Of a DNA stretch of 64,000 nt, positions 20,805 to 58,267 are shown one piece after another. The notes beneath the pieces were generated by a model. That model saw nothing but the letters and a program-made list of their open reading frames with translations, had not been told where the DNA came from and made no database searches. Made by a program: the position numbers and the translations under genes. How positions within the stretch are numbered: position 1 is the stretch's first letter; every line of letters starts with the position of its first letter. The stretch is from Pseudoprimorskyibacter sp. (GTDB lineage Bacteria; Pseudomonadota; Alphaproteobacteria; Rhodobacterales; Rhodobacteraceae), in contig JAXMOG010000003.1 of NCBI GenBank assembly GCA_034670065.1, positions 226,392-290,391 of the forward strand. The letters are read 5' to 3'.

Positions 20805-21347
20805 TTATGCGAAGTTGTAGTACAGGTCAGCGTCGGCAACGTAGCCGTCGATTTCCATACCCATCGTTGACAGATAGTCATCCCACGCCTGGGCCAGACC
20901 ACCGGACCATGCGTCCAGCAGCAGAATTTGCTGGGTGTCGCCGGATTCGGAGTTCTCGATGGTGAATACGATGTCGGTGCCGTAATCCACGTTGTTGCGC
21001 AGATCCCAACCGTTCTTTTCTTCGATTTCCGACTTAACCAGTTGGATCGACAGCACGTTCAGGTCAGCGCTGGCGCTGTCCAAGAACTGCAACATGTCGT
21101 CCTGACGGATGTCGAAATCTGTGATGATATCGGTGCCGTCGTCAACAATATGACCGGCCGAGAAAACAAACGTGTCACGATCCAAACCGCCCATCATGAC
21201 GTCTTCGCCCTGACCGCCGATAATCGTGTCGTCGCCACGACCGCCGATAATAATGTCGTTTCCGCTGTAGCCACGCATCAGATCGTCTTCACGCGTGCCC
21301 CACAGTTTATCGCTTACACCTTGTGCAGTACCTTCGATAATGGGCAT
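20805..21347 (-). CDS. Small RTX-type calcium-binding repeat protein (180 aa)
   Basis: GYSGNDIIIGGRGDDTIIGGQGEDVMMGGLDRDTFVF nonapeptide repeats. It is acidic, has no Cys and no signal peptide. Confidence 0.8.
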   Translation of the reverse strand: MPIIEGTAQGVSDKLWGTREDDLMRGYSGNDIIIGGRGDDTIIGGQGEDVMMGGLDRDTFVFSAGHIVDDGTDIITDFDIRQDDMLQFLDSASADLNVLSIQLVKSEIEEKNGWDLRNNVDYGTDIVFTIENSESGDTQQILLLDAWSGGLAQAWDDYLSTMGMEIDGYVADADLYYNFA

Positions 21348-21560
21348 TCTGTGTCCCCCTTTTTAAAAACATGCTCGCCTCTTTCGGCACTAAGAATCAT
21401 ACGCCTGTTCAGCCGGGCATTCGAGGGGGAGAAGTCGTATTTTGACTTCAAAAATCGCGGCAGGATTGTTTCAGCATATGTCGCAATTCGTGACCATACC
21501 TGCCATTGTTCGGATTTTATCACCTAAATATGGCATTTTAGGCGATTTTTCTCCGACGCC

Positions 21561-22130
21561 TCAGAAAGAATTTGACACGCCCAACCGGGCTGACCGGCGC
21601 CGCCGCCGTTGCCGAAAAATCACGGTTCCCAAAAGAAGACTGGTGCCAAGTAACGTCATCGTGTTTGGCAGTGGAACAACTGACGCTTCAAACGTGCAGT
21701 TTACGTCTTGCCCGCAGTAGAAATTGCCGCCGTCTCGATAGTCCAGATTGCCGATCCCGACCCATTCTTTGCGCCAAACAGTCAGCCCCAGCAGGTCGTA
21801 GAAGGCGCTGCGATCCGAAAAGGTAAAGTACATTTTCGAATCCGGATTCAGAATATCGGCACTGTTCCAAAACTGAATTGGCGCGACAGCAGGGTCCAAC
21901 GTTCCGACAACATCCAGAAACCGCGCCTCTGCCCACAGCGGTTGCGGCAGGTAAGATTGCACAGGCTGCCCGTCAGGTGGCGTTAGATACGTATAGGCAA
22001 CATGTGCGTTCTGCCCGGCGTAGAGCCCAGACAGAAAGTGATAATCTATGGTCTGCTTAATTGTAGCGGCTTGGGCCGAAGTGGCCAAAGCCGCCGCAAG
22101 AATTGCAGCCGCCAGTCGGGCTACCCTCAT
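21561..22130 (-). CDS. VPLPA-CTERM sorting-domain protein, paralog 1 (189 aa)
   Basis: Signal peptide MRVARLAAAILAAALATSAQA. The C-terminus is ...YCGQDVNCTFEASVVPLPNTMTLLGTSLLLGTVIFRQRRRRR (VPLP motif + TM + basic tail). The start overlaps the stop of paralog 2 (ATGA). Confidence 0.75.
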   Translation of the reverse strand: MRVARLAAAILAAALATSAQAATIKQTIDYHFLSGLYAGQNAHVAYTYLTPPDGQPVQSYLPQPLWAEARFLDVVGTLDPAVAPIQFWNSADILNPDSKMYFTFSDRSAFYDLLGLTVWRKEWVGIGNLDYRDGGNFYCGQDVNCTFEASVVPLPNTMTLLGTSLLLGTVIFRQRRRRRSARLGVSNSF

Positions 22131-22699
22131 GCAGTGGTCTCCCCAGCCTTGGCTTTCTGAGACCGCTTGCGCCGACCAAAGGCCAACCCGCCCAGCGCCA
22201 ATGCACTGCCCAATAGCGGCAAAGCAGCCGGCAAAGGAACCACAGAGGCCTGGAAAGTACAATTCAGGTCTTCCCCACCACAACGATAGGTCAGCACATC
22301 ATCCTGATCGCGGCTCCACACACCGATGTTAGAGGTGTTCCACACCAAGAATGCGCGCAGCAAATCCGATGTGGGCCCCGGCCATGAGAAATAGAAGTCG
22401 AGATAGGGCTCAGGCTGCATGATGTTGCCCGAACCGGAAAAGACCAACAGCGCGGTGCTGGTATCCAACACGCCAACCCAGCCGTTGAAATTGACAAAGG
22501 CATTCCCCGGCACCGGGCTGTATGGCCAGATGCTCTCCCCATCTGGCAAGTCAGGGTAATAATATTCGACATGCGCATCCCAACCGGCCCATGGGCCTGT
22601 CAGAAAGTCATAATCGATGGTTTGCTTGATCGTAGACGCCCCGGCTGCGCTGCCCAAAGCAAGCGCTGCGACGGTGGCCAGAACTTTGGTTCCAGACAT
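22127..22699 (-). CDS. VPLPA-CTERM sorting-domain protein, paralog 2 (190 aa)
   Basis: Signal peptide MSGTKVLATVAALALGSAAGAS. The C-terminus is ...RCGGEDLNCTFQASVVPLPAALPLLGSALALGGLAFGRRKR. The N-terminal block [AS]TIKQTIDY.FL.G is shared with paralog 1. Confidence 0.75.
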   Translation of the reverse strand: MSGTKVLATVAALALGSAAGASTIKQTIDYDFLTGPWAGWDAHVEYYYPDLPDGESIWPYSPVPGNAFVNFNGWVGVLDTSTALLVFSGSGNIMQPEPYLDFYFSWPGPTSDLLRAFLVWNTSNIGVWSRDQDDVLTYRCGGEDLNCTFQASVVPLPAALPLLGSALALGGLAFGRRKRSQKAKAGETTA

Positions 22700-22952: not shown

Positions 22953-23861
22953 TTAGCCCTCTACAACCTCTAAAAACTCCCGCCATTCCCGCTTGCTCAA
23001 GCCGGATGTCTCTTGCGTGACCTCTTCACCCTTCAACATCCGCCGAACGCAATCAAGGGCTGCGCCAGACAGGTTCGCACCGCCCATGCGGTAATCCTCG
23101 AAGGCTTTGTAGGCAAAAGGCACCCAATCGGCCACGATCTTGCAGATCGCATCGGCATAAACACGGATTTCGTATTGGGCGTGAGCATCGGCGCGCAGGC
23201 GCAGAAAATGCAGCAGGTTGTGCAGGTCCACTTTCCAATACCATTGGGTATAGATGTTGGCAGGCAGGTTCATACGCGCCAATTCGCGGGCCAGGCCTTG
23301 TTGGCCGTCTTGGCTGATCATCTCTTCGTAATGGTCATACGCCTTCATCGCGTCTTCGCGCAGGTAACGCAGGACGCGCTCGGCCTCTTCACCGCTCAGC
23401 GCTTCACCCCGACCCTGATTATTGATGACAGATTGTGCCGCCAGTGCATCAGGTTCCGGGATATAAAATTCGCGATCCAGAATGGAATAACGGGCCGAGT
23501 ATTCGTTGACGTTGGCTGTCCGGTGACGGATCCATTGACGCGCAACAAAGACCGGCAGTTTGACGTGCAGCTTGATTTCGCACATTTCAAACGGGGTCGA
23601 ATGCCAGTGACGCATCAGATAGCGGATCAATCCTTCGTCATTCTGGACGGATTTCGTTCCCTTGCCATAAGACACGCGCGCCGCTTGGCAAATGGCAGCA
23701 TCGTCCCCCATGTAATCAATCACCCGCACCAGGCCGTGATCCAAGACCGGATACGCGGTGTACAGATGCGCCTCCATTCCTTCTGACACGGCGCGTAGGG
23801 TCTGGCGCGGTGTGCTGCGCTGTTCGTCAATTTCGGCCTGTTGTTCGGGCGAAAGCGGCAT
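22953..23861 (-). CDS. thyX: FAD-dependent thymidylate synthase
   Basis: ThyX signature [17 protein letters not shown]. The start is taken at MPLSPEQQ (the ORF-track start 23960 is an extension). Confidence 0.9.
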
Positions 23862-24068
23862 GGGGCGAATCCTTTTGGCACAAGATGAGTCGCGAGCCAC
23901 TATATCTGGACAATCCGTCAGGGTGTACCGCCACATGATGCGGCGGCAAAAGGGTCGCATTCTTGCCTAAATCACACAATGCGCCAGTGGTTTCCATTGA
24001 CTTTACAGCATTGTCCAAGCAACTTTCAGCCCAAGAAAAAAACCGGGCAGGCGATCCGAGGCAGTCAT

Positions 24069-25034
24069 ATGAAACGTATTTTTGTAACGCTGGCGACAGC
24101 GAGTGCATTGGCGAGTTGTAGCGTCAGCGGTGGCAATCCGCTGATTGGCACAACCGACGACGGCACAACAACCGACACAGGAACCGCGACAGCCGCGGAC
24201 AATAGCGCACTGACGAAGAACCTTTCTTCGATCACAGTGCCCGATGGCAGTCAGGTTTTGGTGAACATCGCATCGCTTGACGGGACACCCTTGGAAGCAA
24301 CCTTTGTGCGGCGTACCGATCTGGATACCGCCGGGTATGAAGCCTATGCCATTCAGGAAGACCCGCTGGACCGCTTGTTCATCGCTCTGACCAAAACCGC
24401 AAACGATAACGCCAGCCGCGCCGCAGTGGTGCAGGACGGCGGACAGTTTAACCGTTATTTGGACGGCGGGTATTACGAACAGACCGGCCCTTACACCGCC
24501 CCCGACCCCAACAGCACAACAGCCGGCACCGGACAGGTGTCCTACGCCGGGACATACGCGGGCTTCACCAACATCGCCACTGCATCTGGCGCGGGTCTGC
24601 TGGCCATTCCTGGAACGGTTGATCCAACCACCCTGCCCGATCTGCCGGCCGAAGCGTTCCGCATTTCGGCACTTGCCTTCCTGAACGCCAACTTTGCCGA
24701 CAACGTGGTGAACGGTGAAATCTACAATCGTGATATGATCGATCCGTCCGATCTCAGCGTTGTTACGCGCTATCCCAACATCTCGTTGATCGTCACCGAC
24801 ATTGACGCTGACGGCGGGTTCTTGGGCACGGCTGAAATCGAAAACGATGTGGGTGTGACCAGCGGATCTTACGGTGGTGTCTTTGGTGGCACCGGCGCCA
24901 CCTCCGTTTCCGGTATTCTGGCGTTGACCAACTTCGACAACGATATTGATGATGAAGAAGAAATCGGGATTTTCGTGCTGACCAAATGTGGGGCAACGGG
25001 CGACAGCGCACTGTGCGACGCGGTACAACCTTAA
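24069..25034 (+). CDS. Lipoprotein with TbpB/fHbp-like C-terminal beta-barrel (candidate Slam-dependent surface lipoprotein)
   Basis: Lipobox MKRIFVTLATASALASC. A T/D/G-rich linker follows. The C-terminal pattern is GQVSYAGTYAGF...ANFADNVVNGEIYNR...DIDADGGFLGTAEI...GSYGGVFGGTGATSVSGILAL, typical of the 8-stranded barrel of TbpB-like lipoproteins. Confidence 0.6.
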   Translation: MKRIFVTLATASALASCSVSGGNPLIGTTDDGTTTDTGTATAADNSALTKNLSSITVPDGSQVLVNIASLDGTPLEATFVRRTDLDTAGYEAYAIQEDPLDRLFIALTKTANDNASRAAVVQDGGQFNRYLDGGYYEQTGPYTAPDPNSTTAGTGQVSYAGTYAGFTNIATASGAGLLAIPGTVDPTTLPDLPAEAFRISALAFLNANFADNVVNGEIYNRDMIDPSDLSVVTRYPNISLIVTDIDADGGFLGTAEIENDVGVTSGSYGGVFGGTGATSVSGILALTNFDNDIDDEEEIGIFVLTKCGATGDSALCDAVQP

Positions 25035-26413
25035 CCCGCAGATTGCGCAACTTGGCTGTGGTGCTGCTGATCGGCGGCGCCCAGCCCGCATTTGCGCAAG
25101 ATGTGATAGACGTCAAAACTGTGCCTCAGGCGCAGCGATTGGCGATGGTGGCGATTGGGTCCGGGCAACTGGAACTGGCTCTGCAACTGGCAGATGCCAT
25201 TTTGGCCGCGCACCCCGAAGACAGCTTTGCCCATATGGTTCGGGCAACGGCATTGTTGCAAAGCGGCCAGCCACGCGAAGCGGCACCAGAGGCACGACGC
25301 GCCTATCGGTATGCCGAGACCCCGCGTCAGAAATACGAAGCCGCCCGCATTGCCGCCTTGGCTGCGACCCGACAACAGCGATTTTTGCCTGCCCAAATAT
25401 GGATGCGCCGCGCCATTCAAGCTGCCCCACTGCCAACAGACCGTGCCCGCGCCTCTCAGGAGTTTCGAGCTGTGCGTCAGGCTGCGCGTCTGGGCATTGA
25501 TCTGGGCTTTTCGGTGGTTCCATCCTCGAATGTGAACGGTGGCAGCGGCGACCGATTGAACGTGATCGAAGGTGTGGATCTGGTTGGCGTATTGTCCGGC
25601 GCTGCATTGGCATTGCCTGGAACCGTCACATCTGGCCAAGCGAAACTACGCTACCGTTTGGCGCAAAACCAGCGCAGTATCACTCAACTGACCGGCGCAT
25701 TGGAAGTGACCCGCGTTGCTTTGACCGATGAGGCACGCACGTTGGCACCAACGACGTCCAACAAGGATTTTTCCGCCACTTATGCCGAAATCGGCCTGAC
25801 ACATGCGCGGATGATGGGGCCGGACGGTGCGGTCCTTCGGCTGAATGCCGATTTGGGGCGTGTCTGGCGGGCCGGTGATATTTCTCACAATGTTGCGCGG
25901 GGCACGCTGTCTTACGGCTGGAATCTCAGCCAGACCACACGGCTGACCTTGTCCGGCACGGCGCAGCAAGAATTTTCCTTTGCCGATGGGCGCGATGACG
26001 TTCGCACCGGCGCGGTTGCAGCGACCTTTCACCATAGCCTGGCCAACAAAGACACTCTGTCGCTTCAACTGGGGCGCAGCGCCGCCTTGTCAGACAATGC
26101 TCAGGCGGAACGAACGGCAAGCACCCTGTCACTGGGGTACACGCGCCACAAACCTTTGGGGCCTGTCACCCTGTCTGGGCGCTTAACTCTGAGCGAAGCC
26201 CATTACCCGGACTATATGGTTGGGTTGATCACCGTACCAAACGGGCGGCGCGATCAACGCATTGCGGCCCAAGTGAATTTCGGAATCACCCCATTGGAAT
26301 ATATGGGGTTTCTGCCCACAGTTACGCTGTCGGCGGAAAAAACAGACTCAAACGTCAGCCGGTTCACGACAGACGAAATGTCTGTTTCAGTCGGCTTTCG
26401 CTCTGCTTTCTGA
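24986..26413 (+). CDS. Outer-membrane TPR + DUF560 beta-barrel protein (surface lipoprotein assembly modifier, Slam-like)
   Basis: Signal peptide ...LRNLAVVLLIGGAQPAFA. The N-terminal region is helical and TPR-like. The C-terminal about 300 aa has alternating beta-strand patterns starting GIDLGFSVVPSSNVNGGS and ending ...VSVGFRSAF (terminal Phe). An alternative TTG start at 25043 would remove the 49-nt overlap with the upstream gene. Confidence 0.6.
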   Translation: MWGNGRQRTVRRGTTLTRRLRNLAVVLLIGGAQPAFAQDVIDVKTVPQAQRLAMVAIGSGQLELALQLADAILAAHPEDSFAHMVRATALLQSGQPREAAPEARRAYRYAETPRQKYEAARIAALAATRQQRFLPAQIWMRRAIQAAPLPTDRARASQEFRAVRQAARLGIDLGFSVVPSSNVNGGSGDRLNVIEGVDLVGVLSGAALALPGTVTSGQAKLRYRLAQNQRSITQLTGALEVTRVALTDEARTLAPTTSNKDFSATYAEIGLTHARMMGPDGAVLRLNADLGRVWRAGDISHNVARGTLSYGWNLSQTTRLTLSGTAQQEFSFADGRDDVRTGAVAATFHHSLANKDTLSLQLGRSAALSDNAQAERTASTLSLGYTRHKPLGPVTLSGRLTLSEAHYPDYMVGLITVPNGRRDQRIAAQVNFGITPLEYMGFLPTVTLSAEKTDSNVSRFTTDEMSVSVGFRSAF

Positions 26414-26490
26414 CCTTCGACAATCACCTCTCGACAGTCCGCGCAAAGCCCCTATCCTTGGACCCAACAACTATTCCAACAGGAGGCCCC

Positions 26491-26919
26491 ATGAGCGTTA
26501 AATATCTGCACACCATGGTTCGCGTGAAAGACCTTGAAAAATCAGTCGCGTTTTTCAAATTGCTGGGCTTGAAAGAGACCCGCCGCACCGACAACGACAA
26601 AGGCCGCTTTACACTGTTGTTCATGGCCCCTCCTGGACAAGAGGAATGCCCGGTCGAGTTGACCTACAACTGGGATGGCGATGACGGCTTGCCATCTGAC
26701 AGCCGTCACTTTGGCCATCTGGCTTATTCGGTCGCGAATATTTACGAAACTTGTCAGCTACTTCAGGACAATGGCGTGGTTATCAACCGCCCGCCGCGCG
26801 ATGGCCATATGGCCTTTGTTCGGTCCCCCGACAATGTGTCGATTGAACTGTTGCAACACGGCGATGCATTGGAGCCTCAAGAGCCATGGGCAAGCATGGG
26901 CAATACCGGACATTGGTAA
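26491..26919 (+). CDS. gloA: Lactoylglutathione lyase (glyoxalase I, VOC family)
   Basis: MSVKYLHTMVRVKDLEKSVAFFKLLGLKE...FGHLAYSVANIYETCQLLQDNGV...AFVRSPDNVSIELLQ. An AGGAGG SD is present. Confidence 0.85.
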   Translation: MSVKYLHTMVRVKDLEKSVAFFKLLGLKETRRTDNDKGRFTLLFMAPPGQEECPVELTYNWDGDDGLPSDSRHFGHLAYSVANIYETCQLLQDNGVVINRPPRDGHMAFVRSPDNVSIELLQHGDALEPQEPWASMGNTGHW

Positions 26920-27608
26920 GCCGTGGGGCAGCCCTATTGGTTGCCCTGACAATCGGCACTTCGGTCCAGGCGGCACAGCAATGTCGCTTGGCCCTTGCGC
27001 TGGCGTTGGACGTGTCTTCTTCTGTCGATGCCGAGGAATACGTGCTTCAGCGCCAAGGCTTGGCCAAAGCGTTGACAGCGCCAGACGTTATGGCGGCGAT
27101 ACTGGCACCGCGCCAACCACCAATGGCCTTGGCGGTCTACGAATGGAGCGGCCGAAACCAAAGCACTGTGGTGTTGAATTGGACGATCCTGAACACCGCC
27201 GAAGACGTGATGCATGTCGCTGAGATTCTGACAACTGGGGCACGCAGTTTCACCCAGTTCCCAACAGCTATGGGGTTTGCTCTGGGGTTTGGTGCGAATT
27301 TGATGCAAGAGGCACCAACCTGCGACCGACAAGTCATCGACATTTCCGGCGACGGCATCACCAATGACGGGTTTCGCCCCAAACTGGCCTACAAGCACTT
27401 TGAGTTCAATGAAATCACTGTAAATGGGCTGGCTGTTCTGGGTGCCGATGACCGCGTCCTGAACTATTTTCTGAACGAAGTCCGGCACGGGCCCGGCGCG
27501 TTTGTGGAAACCGCCGAAGGCTATGCCGGATTTCACAGCGCAATGGCCCGCAAATTGATGCGCGAGATCAATTCACTGGTGATCGGACAGTTGCCAGCAG
27601 ATCAGTAG
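26886..27608 (+). CDS. DUF1194 (vWA-like) domain protein, secreted
   Basis: Signal peptide ...AALLVALTIGTSVQA, then CRLALALALDVSSSVDAEEY...VIDISGDGITN, typical of DUF1194. The start is uncertain (ATG 26886 or TTG 26913). Confidence 0.7.
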   Translation: MGKHGQYRTLVSRGAALLVALTIGTSVQAAQQCRLALALALDVSSSVDAEEYVLQRQGLAKALTAPDVMAAILAPRQPPMALAVYEWSGRNQSTVVLNWTILNTAEDVMHVAEILTTGARSFTQFPTAMGFALGFGANLMQEAPTCDRQVIDISGDGITNDGFRPKLAYKHFEFNEITVNGLAVLGADDRVLNYFLNEVRHGPGAFVETAEGYAGFHSAMARKLMREINSLVIGQLPADQ

Positions 27609-28099
27609 ATATAGCGTATCTGATCCGTCCAGAACCGTTCAACGCGCCTTAGGGACGTGGTGACCAAATCCAGATCAGAGGCTGAAATATGCCCCTTCTC
27701 CTCCATCACCTTGGATTGGGTGGTGAACAATCCGTCCACTATATCGCGTATGTCCCGCCCCTTTTGTGTCAGACGTACCCGCACAGAACGGCGATCAATT
27801 TCACAACGTTGATGGTGCATATAGCCCAGATCGACCAGCTTTTTCAGGTTATAGCTGACATTGCTGCCCTGATAATAACCGCGGGTCCGAAGCTCCCCGG
27901 CGGTGACTTCATTTTCGCCAATGTTAAACAACAGCAATGCCTGAACGGCGTTAATCTCAATCACGCCAACGCGCTCAAACTCATCCTTGATCACGTCCAA
28001 AAGCAACCGGTGCAATCGTTCTACCAACGAAAGTGCGTCCAGATACTCAGCCGCAAACCCGTGCCGGGTCGGGCGCCCAAGTTGCGCATGTATGCTCAT
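27602..28099 (-). CDS. MarR family transcriptional regulator
   Basis: Winged-helix region NAVQALLLFNIGENEVTAGELRTRGYYQGSNVSYNLKKLVDLGYMHHQRCEIDRRSVRVRLTQKG. Confidence 0.8.
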   Translation of the reverse strand: MSIHAQLGRPTRHGFAAEYLDALSLVERLHRLLLDVIKDEFERVGVIEINAVQALLLFNIGENEVTAGELRTRGYYQGSNVSYNLKKLVDLGYMHHQRCEIDRRSVRVRLTQKGRDIRDIVDGLFTTQSKVMEEKGHISASDLDLVTTSLRRVERFWTDQIRYIY

Positions 28100-28188
28100 A
28101 TCGGTCTCCGCCTTTTATCCTTTGACGGCAACCTCAGAGAAAAAACGAAACATCCGGTTAAGTGTAATGCAGAAGCGTAAAATCCGCG

Positions 28189-28452
28189 CTATTTGGCGGC
28201 AAACGCCGTTTTTGAAATATCGGCAATCACATCCTGCAAGGGGGCTGGCGCGGACGTTTGCCCAGACACCCATTGGTAAAGATCCTGATCATTTTCGGAC
28301 AACAACGCTTCGTATTTGTCCAATTCCTGCTCGGACATCACCGGCAACCGCGTTTCGGCATAGCGCGACAGAATGATATCCATCTCTTTGATTCCTCGAC
28401 GCATCGACCGCATCGACAGACGTTTCAGACGGGTTTCATGTGACTCTGTCAT
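28189..28452 (-). CDS. sdhE: FAD assembly factor SdhE (succinate dehydrogenase assembly factor 2)
   Basis: 87 aa with the RRGIKEMD (RGxxE) motif and the SdhE/DUF339 helix pattern ...YEALLSENDQDLYQWVSGQ. Confidence 0.8.
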   Translation of the reverse strand: MTESHETRLKRLSMRSMRRGIKEMDIILSRYAETRLPVMSEQELDKYEALLSENDQDLYQWVSGQTSAPAPLQDVIADISKTAFAAK

Positions 28453-58037: not shown

Positions 58038-58070
58038 AAAAAAAACCCCGTTTCGGCCAAGCGAAAGGGG
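58038..58070 (-). terminator. Intrinsic terminator/attenuator inside the metZ leader
   Basis: On the minus strand CCCCUUUCG-(6 nt)-CGAAA(C)GGGG is followed by U8, 39 nt upstream of the metZ ATG. Confidence 0.6.
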
Positions 58071-58082
58071 GCTTTCGTCTGA

Positions 58083-58133
58083 CCTTTTAGCGGAATATTT
58101 AACGTGGCCCGCAATCCGGTAACAAATCGCCAC
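58083..58133 (-). promoter_or_regulatory. SAM-II-like (metA-motif) riboswitch aptamer candidate
   Basis: The minus strand reads GUGGCGAUUUGUUACCGGAUUGCGGGCCACGUUAAAUAUUCCGCUAAAAGG. It has a P1 stem GUGGC/GCCAC, GAUUU after P1, and an A-rich 3' tail CCGCUAAAA able to pair with the loop UUGCGG (pseudoknot). It lies upstream of a methionine-biosynthesis gene. Confidence 0.5.
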
Positions 58134-58267
58134 GCCGTCGAAATAAAGCCCGCACAGCAACAGGTCAAGCCTGTCTTACACAGGGCACATCACCGCAATG
58201 CGCGCATTTTGCCCCCCATTGCCGATCCCGCCGAAACCCGCATGATGGCCCAAACTCAGGAGGCCCC

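Follow-up and report, generated by a model that had tools for sequence, protein, structure and literature searches.

A predicted type 11 secretion (Slam/DUF560) outer-membrane protein and its lipoprotein partner in Pseudoprimorskyibacter sp.: a probable ortholog of the marine cluster 3 locus of Rhodobacterales

Introduction

Type 11 secretion systems (T11SS), also known as surface lipoprotein assembly modifiers (Slam, DUF560), are known almost solely from studies of animal-associated bacteria, in which their cargo proteins, exposed on the cell, bind iron, haem or complement. This study deals with two neighbouring genes on contig JAXMOG010000003.1 of Pseudoprimorskyibacter sp. (assembly GCA_034670065.1), a member of the alphaproteobacterial order Rhodobacterales, that are predicted to encode a T11SS outer-membrane protein (OMP) and its cargo lipoprotein. 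All positions refer to the 64,000-nucleotide (nt) stretch of this contig that was analyzed, in the following termed the window. The two genes are:

24069-25034, forward strand: cargo lipoprotein, 321 amino acids, predicted T11SS cargo
24986-26413, forward strand: T11SS/Slam-family OMP, 475 amino acids counted from the first ATG

The two genes probably constitute a two-gene operon for a T11SS (Slam/DUF560) translocon and its cognate surface lipoprotein, orthologous to the published marine cluster 3 locus. A first reading of the DNA, made from the sequence alone (the sequence-only reading), had proposed a Slam-like translocon paired with a TbpB/fHbp-like lipoprotein. This proposal is supported by Pfam matches within both protein families, AlphaFold2 (AF2) models, Foldseek comparisons and the conserved adjacency of the two genes.

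The Slam1 and Slam2 systems of Neisseria, with TbpB, LbpB, fHbp and HpuA as cargo (cluster 1), also combine a tetratricopeptide repeat (TPR) domain with a 14-stranded DUF560 barrel and are encoded adjacent to their cargo. The Neisseria cargo proteins likewise are lipoproteins featuring a flexible tether plus an eight-stranded barrel at the C-terminus, and the model of the window cargo matches the TbpB C-lobe and fHbp. However, sequence similarity between the window proteins and the Neisseria systems is at the level of Pfam thresholds only. TbpB and LbpB consist of two lobes, each composed of handle and barrel, exceed 500 amino acids and have a TbpA-type receptor, whereas the window cargo comprises a single lobe within 321 amino acids and has no receptor gene nearby. 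Moreover, its N-domain family is conserved order-wide rather than hypervariable, and it possesses an additional C-terminal tail with an invariant Cys pair. The loci differ as well: the window type occurs without a TonB-dependent receptor partner or an iron-type context, as deduced from three Pfam-labelled loci (L084-L086), and the pair resides in a core-genome syntenic block instead of a mobile island.

Haemophilin HphA (HsmA in Acinetobacter; HphA of Stenotrophomonas, structure 8gmm) shares the fold, in which an eight-stranded barrel comes after an N-terminal β 'clamp' or handle. As a haemophore, HphA is secreted in soluble form, possesses a haem-ligating His and is encoded in a haem-uptake locus together with a TonB-dependent receptor. 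In contrast, the window cargo is predicted to be lipidated and is devoid of a conserved His or Met, and a TonB-dependent receptor is missing from the labelled loci; only the general fold is alike. HphA-type haemophores depend on a DUF560 OMP (PMC8560813).

The NilB/NilC and HrpB/HrpC pairs of Xenorhabdus likewise represent a DUF560 OMP with a neighbouring cargo outside the iron-piracy paradigm, and NilC is a two-domain surface lipoprotein (PMC9100927, PMC8406197). These pairs are host-association determinants located in variable loci of a gammaproteobacterial symbiont, whereas the window pair occurs across the order in conserved synteny, and this distribution points to a housekeeping role.

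The T11SS/DUF560 OMPs of marine cluster 3, nearly all of them originating from Rhodobacteraceae/Roseobacteraceae, were described by Grossman, Mucci and Goodrich-Blair (Microb Genom 2025;11:001406, PMC12282271). Their syntenic locus (Fig. 8 and Supplementary File 3 of that study) consists of genes for a flavin-dependent thymidylate synthase, the cargo, the T11SS OMP, a lactoylglutathione lyase and a DUF1194 protein, and the predicted cargo is a signal peptidase II (SPII) lipoprotein of 282-375 amino acids with a C-terminal eight-stranded barrel. The gene order in the window is identical (divergent thyX, cargo, OMP, gloA, DUF1194), and no essential difference between the two loci was observed. 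Furthermore, the family profile of the window cargo matched the published cargo of Roseovarius THAF27 (E = 1e-97), Sulfitobacter NAS-14.1 (E = 1e-84) and Ascidiaceihabitans donghaensis (E = 9e-74), and the OMP profile matched the published OMPs SPO1271 (E = 6e-97) and Rhodovulum NI22 (E = 3e-105). Rather than a newly seen oddity, the window pair is a further ortholog of this locus type published in 2025 and no new kind of system. The present analysis adds the near-universal pairing of cargo and OMP, the conserved cargo N-domain, a conserved putative σ70-type promoter for which no conserved operator was found, and a thymidylate synthase neighbour that persists across the change from thyX to thyA.

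Conservation of the cargo-OMP pair

For the identification of relatives, one genome per GTDB species was scanned. In total, 206 genomes encode a relative, and the best 80 loci were annotated with the profiles and numbered from L001 (the window's own locus) onward; L084-L086 were fetched separately and labelled by means of Pfam. The best 80 of the 206 relatives all belong to the Rhodobacterales and include the freshwater/phototrophic Rhodobacter capsulatus, Gemmobacter and Paenirhodobacter. Searched against all open reading frames (ORFs) of the window, the profiles matched only the cargo and OMP ORFs (E = 5e-176 and 8e-113, values that are inflated as the window sequences are rows of both profile alignments), and no second Slam or cargo copy was found in the 64 kb by this search.

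A Slam-family gene follows the cargo gene immediately downstream in all 77 evaluable genomes (77/77), which bears out the Slam-substrate adjacency noted in the sequence-only reading. The junction of the two genes is overlapping or at most 30 nt long in 69 of 76 loci, based on heuristic start calls. When loci were selected by their OMP gene (Salipiger, Alloyangia, Sulfitobacter), a member of this cargo family was present upstream in three of three cases. By comparison, Pfam-detectable cargo genes were reported for 8 of the 145 cluster 3 loci in PMC12282271. Since the profile scan finds cargo beside the OMP in every evaluable genome, we infer that the sensitivity of the Pfam models accounts for much of this low count.

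In Lentibacter sp. XHP0401 (L060, 5989-8325), the cargo gene contains an in-frame stop within the invariant GGQFNR region, and a frameshift where the TPR domain ends interrupts the Slam-family gene. Possible explanations are joint pseudogenisation of cargo and OMP in one isolate genome (156x coverage) and a sequencing error.

The conserved block starts with a divergent thymidylate synthase gene, followed by cargo, OMP, gloA and often DUF1194. Further downstream, genes for a MarR-family (LdtR-like) regulator, SdhE, a helix-turn-helix protein and an aspartate aminotransferase are syntenic in many loci. A TonB-dependent receptor gene was detected neither in the Pfam-labelled loci L084-L086 nor among the labelled downstream genes of L001; in the remaining loci, the conserved genes leave no space for one between thyX and the aminotransferase gene. 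Regarding the setting of the pair, the block appears to be a vertically inherited core-genome feature that occurs order-wide, non-marine members included, and not a pathogen-like island.

The cargo lipoprotein

The following segments were distinguished in the cargo gene:

24069-24119, forward strand: signal peptide and lipobox (L-A-S-C17)
24120-24203, forward strand: disordered linker, Thr/Gly/Asp-rich
24204-24488, forward strand: β-sheet N-domain
24534-24986, forward strand: C-terminal barrel
24987-25031, forward strand: tail beyond the final barrel strand; carries the invariant Cys pair C307/C316

The best choice for the cargo start is ATG 24069, which is preceded by a GAGG Shine-Dalgarno sequence 7 nt upstream; the encoded protein begins with MKRIFVTLATASALASC. 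Both the LASC lipobox and the low-complexity linker noticed at first sight are present in the sequence, and so is the quoted C-terminal barrel pattern (VSYAGTYAGF...LNANFADNVVNGEIYN...GSYGGVFGGTGATSVSG). The lipobox Cys is kept in at least 90% of 115 aligned cargo homologues, and a lipobox was detected in 78 of the 80 genome loci. Among these homologues, 27 of 115 matched TbpB_B_D (PF01298) and 5 of 115 matched FHBP_C (PF08794) at E<0.01. Individual rescoring of three homologues against TbpB_B_D placed P0132 above the cut-off (27.1 bits vs 26) and P0087 and P0146 just below it. Moreover, a search of the PDB with the cargo family profile matched the C-barrel of fHbp (E = 0.005).

The AF2 model of the cargo (predicted local distance difference test, pLDDT, 89.8; predicted template modelling score, pTM, 0.86) comprises a disordered tether (residues 18-45), a seven-strand β N-domain (52-138), a barrel (156-306) and a short tail helix. 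The barrel is composed of eight strands with pLDDT >95; DSSP reports nine segments, one strand being broken at 235-238. In the Foldseek search of the PDB, the 50 matches listed were all TbpB (C-lobe or full-length), fHbp, HphA or NHBA, every one with a probability of 1.00; the best was the TbpB C-lobe 5kkx (E = 5.7e-8), followed by fHbp, HphA and NHBA. The comparison with TbpB C-lobe and fHbp suggested at the outset thus yielded a modelled eight-stranded barrel and matches to both proteins.

Mean pairwise identity amounts to 48% in the N-domain, 48% in the barrel and 28% in the linker. Invariant N-domain motifs are Q96-x-D98-x-L100-x-R102 (within QEDPLDR) and GGQFNR. Conserved residues of the cargo are Asp, Glu, Gln, Asn, Arg, Tyr, Phe and Gly together with the one Cys pair of the C-terminal tail, and an invariant or near-invariant His or Met is absent from the 115-sequence alignment. 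These data bear on the possibility that the cargo is a haemophilin/HphA-like haemophore or a metal-scavenging surface receptor serving nutrient piracy as in pathogens. The structural matches include holo-HphA 8gmm (E = 8.9e-6, template modelling score normalised to the target 0.52), and PMC12282271 assigns some Rhodobacterales cargo to a 'haemophilin-like 1' architecture. Nevertheless, such a function is unlikely given the lack of a conserved His or Met; the labelled loci harbour no TonB-dependent receptor, TonB or haem-utilisation gene, such genes are rare in cluster 3 according to the co-occurrence analysis in PMC12282271, and the aligned upstream regions contain no conserved Fur-, Irr- or Zur-like palindrome at the promoter.

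Matches of eight cargo homologues to zf-CDGSH were rejected as spurious, the tail having only two conserved Cys and no His. A CDGSH cluster requires three Cys and one His. For the tail Cys pair, a disulfide is more likely than such a cluster.

The syntenic slot holds at least two divergent cargo types. In Ruegeria pomeroyi, it is occupied by SPO1272, which is only distantly related to the window family (E = 4e-13 to its profile). Window-type cargo ends with ...FVLxQCG...C...P including the Cys pair; cargo of the SPO1272/Rhodovulum type ends with ...VRETGGFI(V/L)Y and matches the window-family profile at E ~1e-12 to 1e-13. A literature search for SPO1271 and SPO1272 returned nothing relevant.

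Cargo orthologues are often named 'thymidylate synthase' in NCBI/UniRef (e.g., P0065, P0078, P0087, P0111), evidently an annotation error spread from the neighbouring thyX. The supplement of PMC12282271 marks two cargo proteins as 'incorrectly annotated as thymidylate synthase'. Further database names of the family are 'transferrin-binding protein-like solute binding protein' and 'HupA family protein'.

The barrel outer-membrane protein

Downstream of a signal peptide ending with ...AQPAFA in front of QD, the OMP gene encodes two regions:

~25121-25483, forward strand: TPR-like helical domain
~25490-26410, forward strand: 14-stranded barrel with terminal Phe

Sequence and AF2 model agree with the initial description of the downstream gene product as signal peptide, TPR-like helices and a barrel ending in Phe. 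The protein ends with ...GFRSAF. Its model (pLDDT 92.4, pTM 0.81) shows seven helices at residues 46-166 (pLDDT >94), followed by 14 long strands at 169-473 and the terminal F475; one short hairpin (191-202) is located after strand 1.

In total, 54 full-length OMP homologues were considered, to which the window protein is related at E = 1e-27 to 1e-169; wherever a source is named, it belongs to the Rhodobacterales. SlipAM (PF04575/DUF560) was matched at E<0.01 by 35 of these 54 proteins, the best match reaching 8e-14. Six rescored homologues exceed the SlipAM cut-off of 22 with 25.5-39.8 bits, among them P0005, which is 53% identical (25.5 bits), P0006 (30 bits), P0020 (39.8 bits) and P0036 (34.1 bits). 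The alignment of P0036 spans positions 2-272 of the 288 profile positions. Moreover, P0006 and P0014 are listed as 'surface lipoprotein assembly modifier' at NCBI.

Neighbouring genes and promoter regions

Three genes flank the pair in the window:

22953-23861, reverse strand: thyX, FAD-dependent thymidylate synthase (TIGR02170, 207.6 bits; PF02511, E = 1e-57)
26491-26919, forward strand: gloA, lactoylglutathione lyase (PF00903, E = 7.5e-17; TIGR00068, 92.2 bits, cut-off 120)
26886-27608, forward strand: DUF1194 (von Willebrand factor A-like) protein with signal peptide (PF06707, E = 1.9e-66; DxSxS motif of a metal ion-dependent adhesion site, MIDAS: DVSSS)

The true start of thyX is ATG 23861 (MPLSPEQQ...) and not that of the longer ORF reaching 23960, as inferred from a ribosome binding site (RBS) and ATG conserved across ~58 loci. 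The gene lies divergently upstream of the cargo gene in 66 of 72 evaluable loci. In L056, L065, L077 and Alloyangia L085 (2271-3599), thyA-folA (the latter encoding dihydrofolate reductase, DHFR) occupies the same position and strand in place of thyX. L017 and L081 carry thyA (PF00303-type) without detected folA, and their contigs end just upstream. The exception is L061, where a pyridoxal phosphate (PLP)-dependent dehydratase-like gene was found at this position. Thus, nearly every evaluable locus retains a thymidylate synthase gene beside the operon despite non-orthologous displacement. This linkage may be functional or may merely reflect in-place replacement by recombination.

The intergenic region contains two promoter-like elements whose function is putative:

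23899-23907, reverse strand: putative thyX promoter -10-like element AGATATAGT
23997-24003, forward strand: putative cargo/OMP operon -35-like element TTGACTT, ~65 nt before the start codon

At a constant spacing from the cargo gene, 41 of 78 upstream regions contain the forward-strand form of the thyX element (ACTATATCT), and the element is located ~35-40 nt upstream of the thyX RBS/ATG (58 aligned windows). A 'CGACTCA' block is conserved just downstream of it. TTGACT recurs at an unchanged position in 67 of the 79 upstream regions, with a weaker -10-like 'gA...T' 16-17 nt downstream of TTGACTT; the two promoter-like elements are arranged back-to-back, ~90 nt apart. A search for operators by k-mers and aligned windows in 78-79 upstream regions yielded these -35-like and -10-like elements only; it revealed no Fur-, Irr-, Zur- or NrdR-type palindrome, and TTGACTT is not flanked by any conserved palindrome. 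A generic promoter/terminator scan of 23800-28200 gave site counts that did not exceed those of shuffled sequence, and it predicted no terminator between the OMP gene and gloA. The Rfam search of the intergenic region gave only an insignificant SorX match (15 bits vs a gathering score of 46.6).

Downstream of the OMP gene, gloA was found in 71-74 of 75 evaluable loci. Its product probably is cytoplasmic; it is a conserved neighbour with a putative role at most in any system. The DUF1194 gene overlaps gloA by 34 nt. Among the domains that co-occur with cluster 3 OMPs, DUF1194 is the most frequent (102 of 145 loci, PMC12282271), and the authors of that study allow for other cargo (DUF1194) or another function of these OMPs. 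The secreted DUF1194 protein could accordingly be the true cargo or partner of the OMP, with the lipoprotein acting as accessory factor or as co-receptor signalling to it. Its signal peptide, DxSxS motif and gene overlap with gloA are compatible with this idea, and the invariant acidic N-domain motif QEDPLDR of the lipoprotein is of a kind that a MIDAS site could bind. However, only 40 of 73 evaluable loci encode DUF1194 within 6 kb; the other 33 loci, among them Rhodobacter, Gemmobacter and Paenirhodobacter, keep the pair. In addition, DUF1194 lacks the eight-stranded barrel common to all verified T11SS cargo (PMC12282271), and a role as true cargo is improbable. The constant partner of the OMP is the lipoprotein and not DUF1194, although DUF1194 may act as a facultative partner.

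Proposed mechanism and weighing of the assignment

According to the proposed mechanism, the lipoprotein precursor would be exported by Sec and lipidated at Cys17, and the Lol pathway would then deliver it to the outer membrane. These two steps follow from the lipobox sequence and established lipoprotein biogenesis. The TPR-bearing 14-stranded barrel would recognise the C-terminal eight-stranded barrel of the cargo and transfer it to the cell surface/outer leaflet, where the cargo would stay lipid-anchored and the ~28-residue flexible linker would hold out the conserved N-terminal β-domain as ligand-binding head. Recognition and transfer are modelled on Neisseria Slam and the T11SS of Xenorhabdus and Acinetobacter; by this analogy, the OMP probably places the cargo lipoprotein on the cell surface.

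Alternatively, the lipoprotein might remain on the periplasmic side as a stable plug or partner of the barrel, as in LptD-LptE, and the complex might have a different role in transport or in the envelope. An obligate two-protein complex of this kind would be in line with the tight one-to-one gene pairing, the apparent translational coupling and the order-wide conservation, and surface exposure of cluster 3 members is so far predicted. Still, the fold class (β N-domain and eight-stranded barrel on a long tether) is that of the surface-displayed proteins TbpB, fHbp and HphA, and the OMP belongs to DUF560, for whose members translocation was reconstituted (PMC9090332, PMC8406197). An LptD-LptE-like arrangement is unlikely.

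Several results weigh against the assignment to T11SS. The window OMP itself scored 15.8 bits against SlipAM (cut-off 22, E = 0.01, residues 399-472 only), and its TPR_16 match (E = 5.9e-5) is below the cut-off of that model; the DUF560 check thus succeeded for the OMP family and fell short for the window protein. Pfam and NCBIfam scans of the cargo itself gave nothing, including no TbpB_B_D match at E <= 1. Because the window proteins are below the Pfam cut-offs, their family membership is deduced from transitive homology and predicted structures. Moreover, no solved Slam structure was among the PDB matches of the sequence-profile and Foldseek searches, and no experimental work on any cluster 3 T11SS member was found in the literature searched; the reservation of the PMC12282271 authors concerning cargo and function, mentioned above, belongs here as well. 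The OMP start is ambiguous between the equally possible codons ATG 24986 (49-nt overlap with the cargo gene), GTG 25013 (22-nt overlap) and TTG 25043 (8-nt gap), all of which preserve the signal peptide ...LAVVLLIGGAQPAFA preceding QD. The overlap of the two genes described initially is therefore likely, but it would be lost with the TTG start. Finally, the generic promoter scan did not flag the TTGACTT site, and what looks like a constitutive promoter is read from sequence conservation.

The best PDB matches of the OMP model in the Foldseek search also count among these points, being generic: PelBC (1.3e-8), BcsC (2.2e-8), FadL, CymA and OmpG. The first two could indicate a polysaccharide exporter of the PelB/BcsC/PgaA type that is located beside the lipoprotein gene by coincidence, and PgaA-like sequences formerly clustered with DUF560 (PMC8406197). 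On the other hand, polysaccharide synthase genes were found in none of the examined loci. The barrels of PelB, BcsC and PgaA are 16-stranded, whereas the OMP model features 14 strands, as do FadL, CymA and OmpG among its fold matches. Furthermore, the OMP family matches SlipAM in Pfam, and adjacency in every evaluable genome is no coincidence. A polysaccharide exporter consequently is highly improbable.

Returning to the T11SS translocon with its lipoprotein cargo, the pair has the appearance of a housekeeping feature that is expressed constitutively and inherited vertically. Its ligand probably is either a molecule of general occurrence or a conserved component of the cell itself or of its envelope, and probably not a host iron or complement protein. 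This view is taken because of the core synteny, the conserved N-domain, the lack of a conserved His or Met and of a nearby TonB-dependent receptor, and the TTGACTT element without operator. A role tied to thymidylate, folate or nucleotide metabolism, such as capture of nucleosides, pterins or DNA-related compounds, or an envelope function together with DUF1194, is a speculative option with a small chance of being right; it is raised because the thymidylate synthase gene stays divergently adjacent even where thyA-folA replaced thyX. If true, an order-wide housekeeping role unrelated to host piracy would add a functional class to type 11 secretion. The version found in Rhodobacterales is maintained across this abundant and mostly environmental order, with the cargo N-domain under clear purifying selection, and identification of the cargo ligand would reveal the function of T11SS outside hosts. 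Rhodobacter capsulatus carries the same cargo type and is a tractable host.

Further features of the window

Additional genes near the locus are:

27602-28099, reverse strand: MarR-family regulator, convergent with DUF1194 (NCBIfam LdtR, 232.8 bits, cut-off 250)
20805-21347, reverse strand: RTX calcium-binding-repeat protein (PF00353, E = 1.2e-14)
21561-22130 and 22127-22699, reverse strand: tandem paralogues with signal peptides and a C-terminal VPLP...LLG...RRR(R/K) tail

Most marine members keep the MarR-family regulator gene in synteny with the locus. LdtR is a regulator of L,D-transpeptidase in other alphaproteobacteria. The RTX gene and the two paralogues are the three small genes between lepA and thyX (20805-22699, reverse strand). 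The tails of the paralogues resemble PEP-CTERM sorting signals, with weak floc_PepA and PEP-CTERM matches. In the closest relative, L004, the lepA-thyX gap is <1 kb, which is insufficient for these three genes.

An alphaproteobacterial S-adenosylmethionine (SAM) riboswitch aptamer (RF00521) was identified at 58067-58143 on the reverse strand (58 bits, E = 2e-10). No other Rfam match in the window exceeds the gathering score, and the aptamer fits the alphaproteobacterial origin of the DNA.

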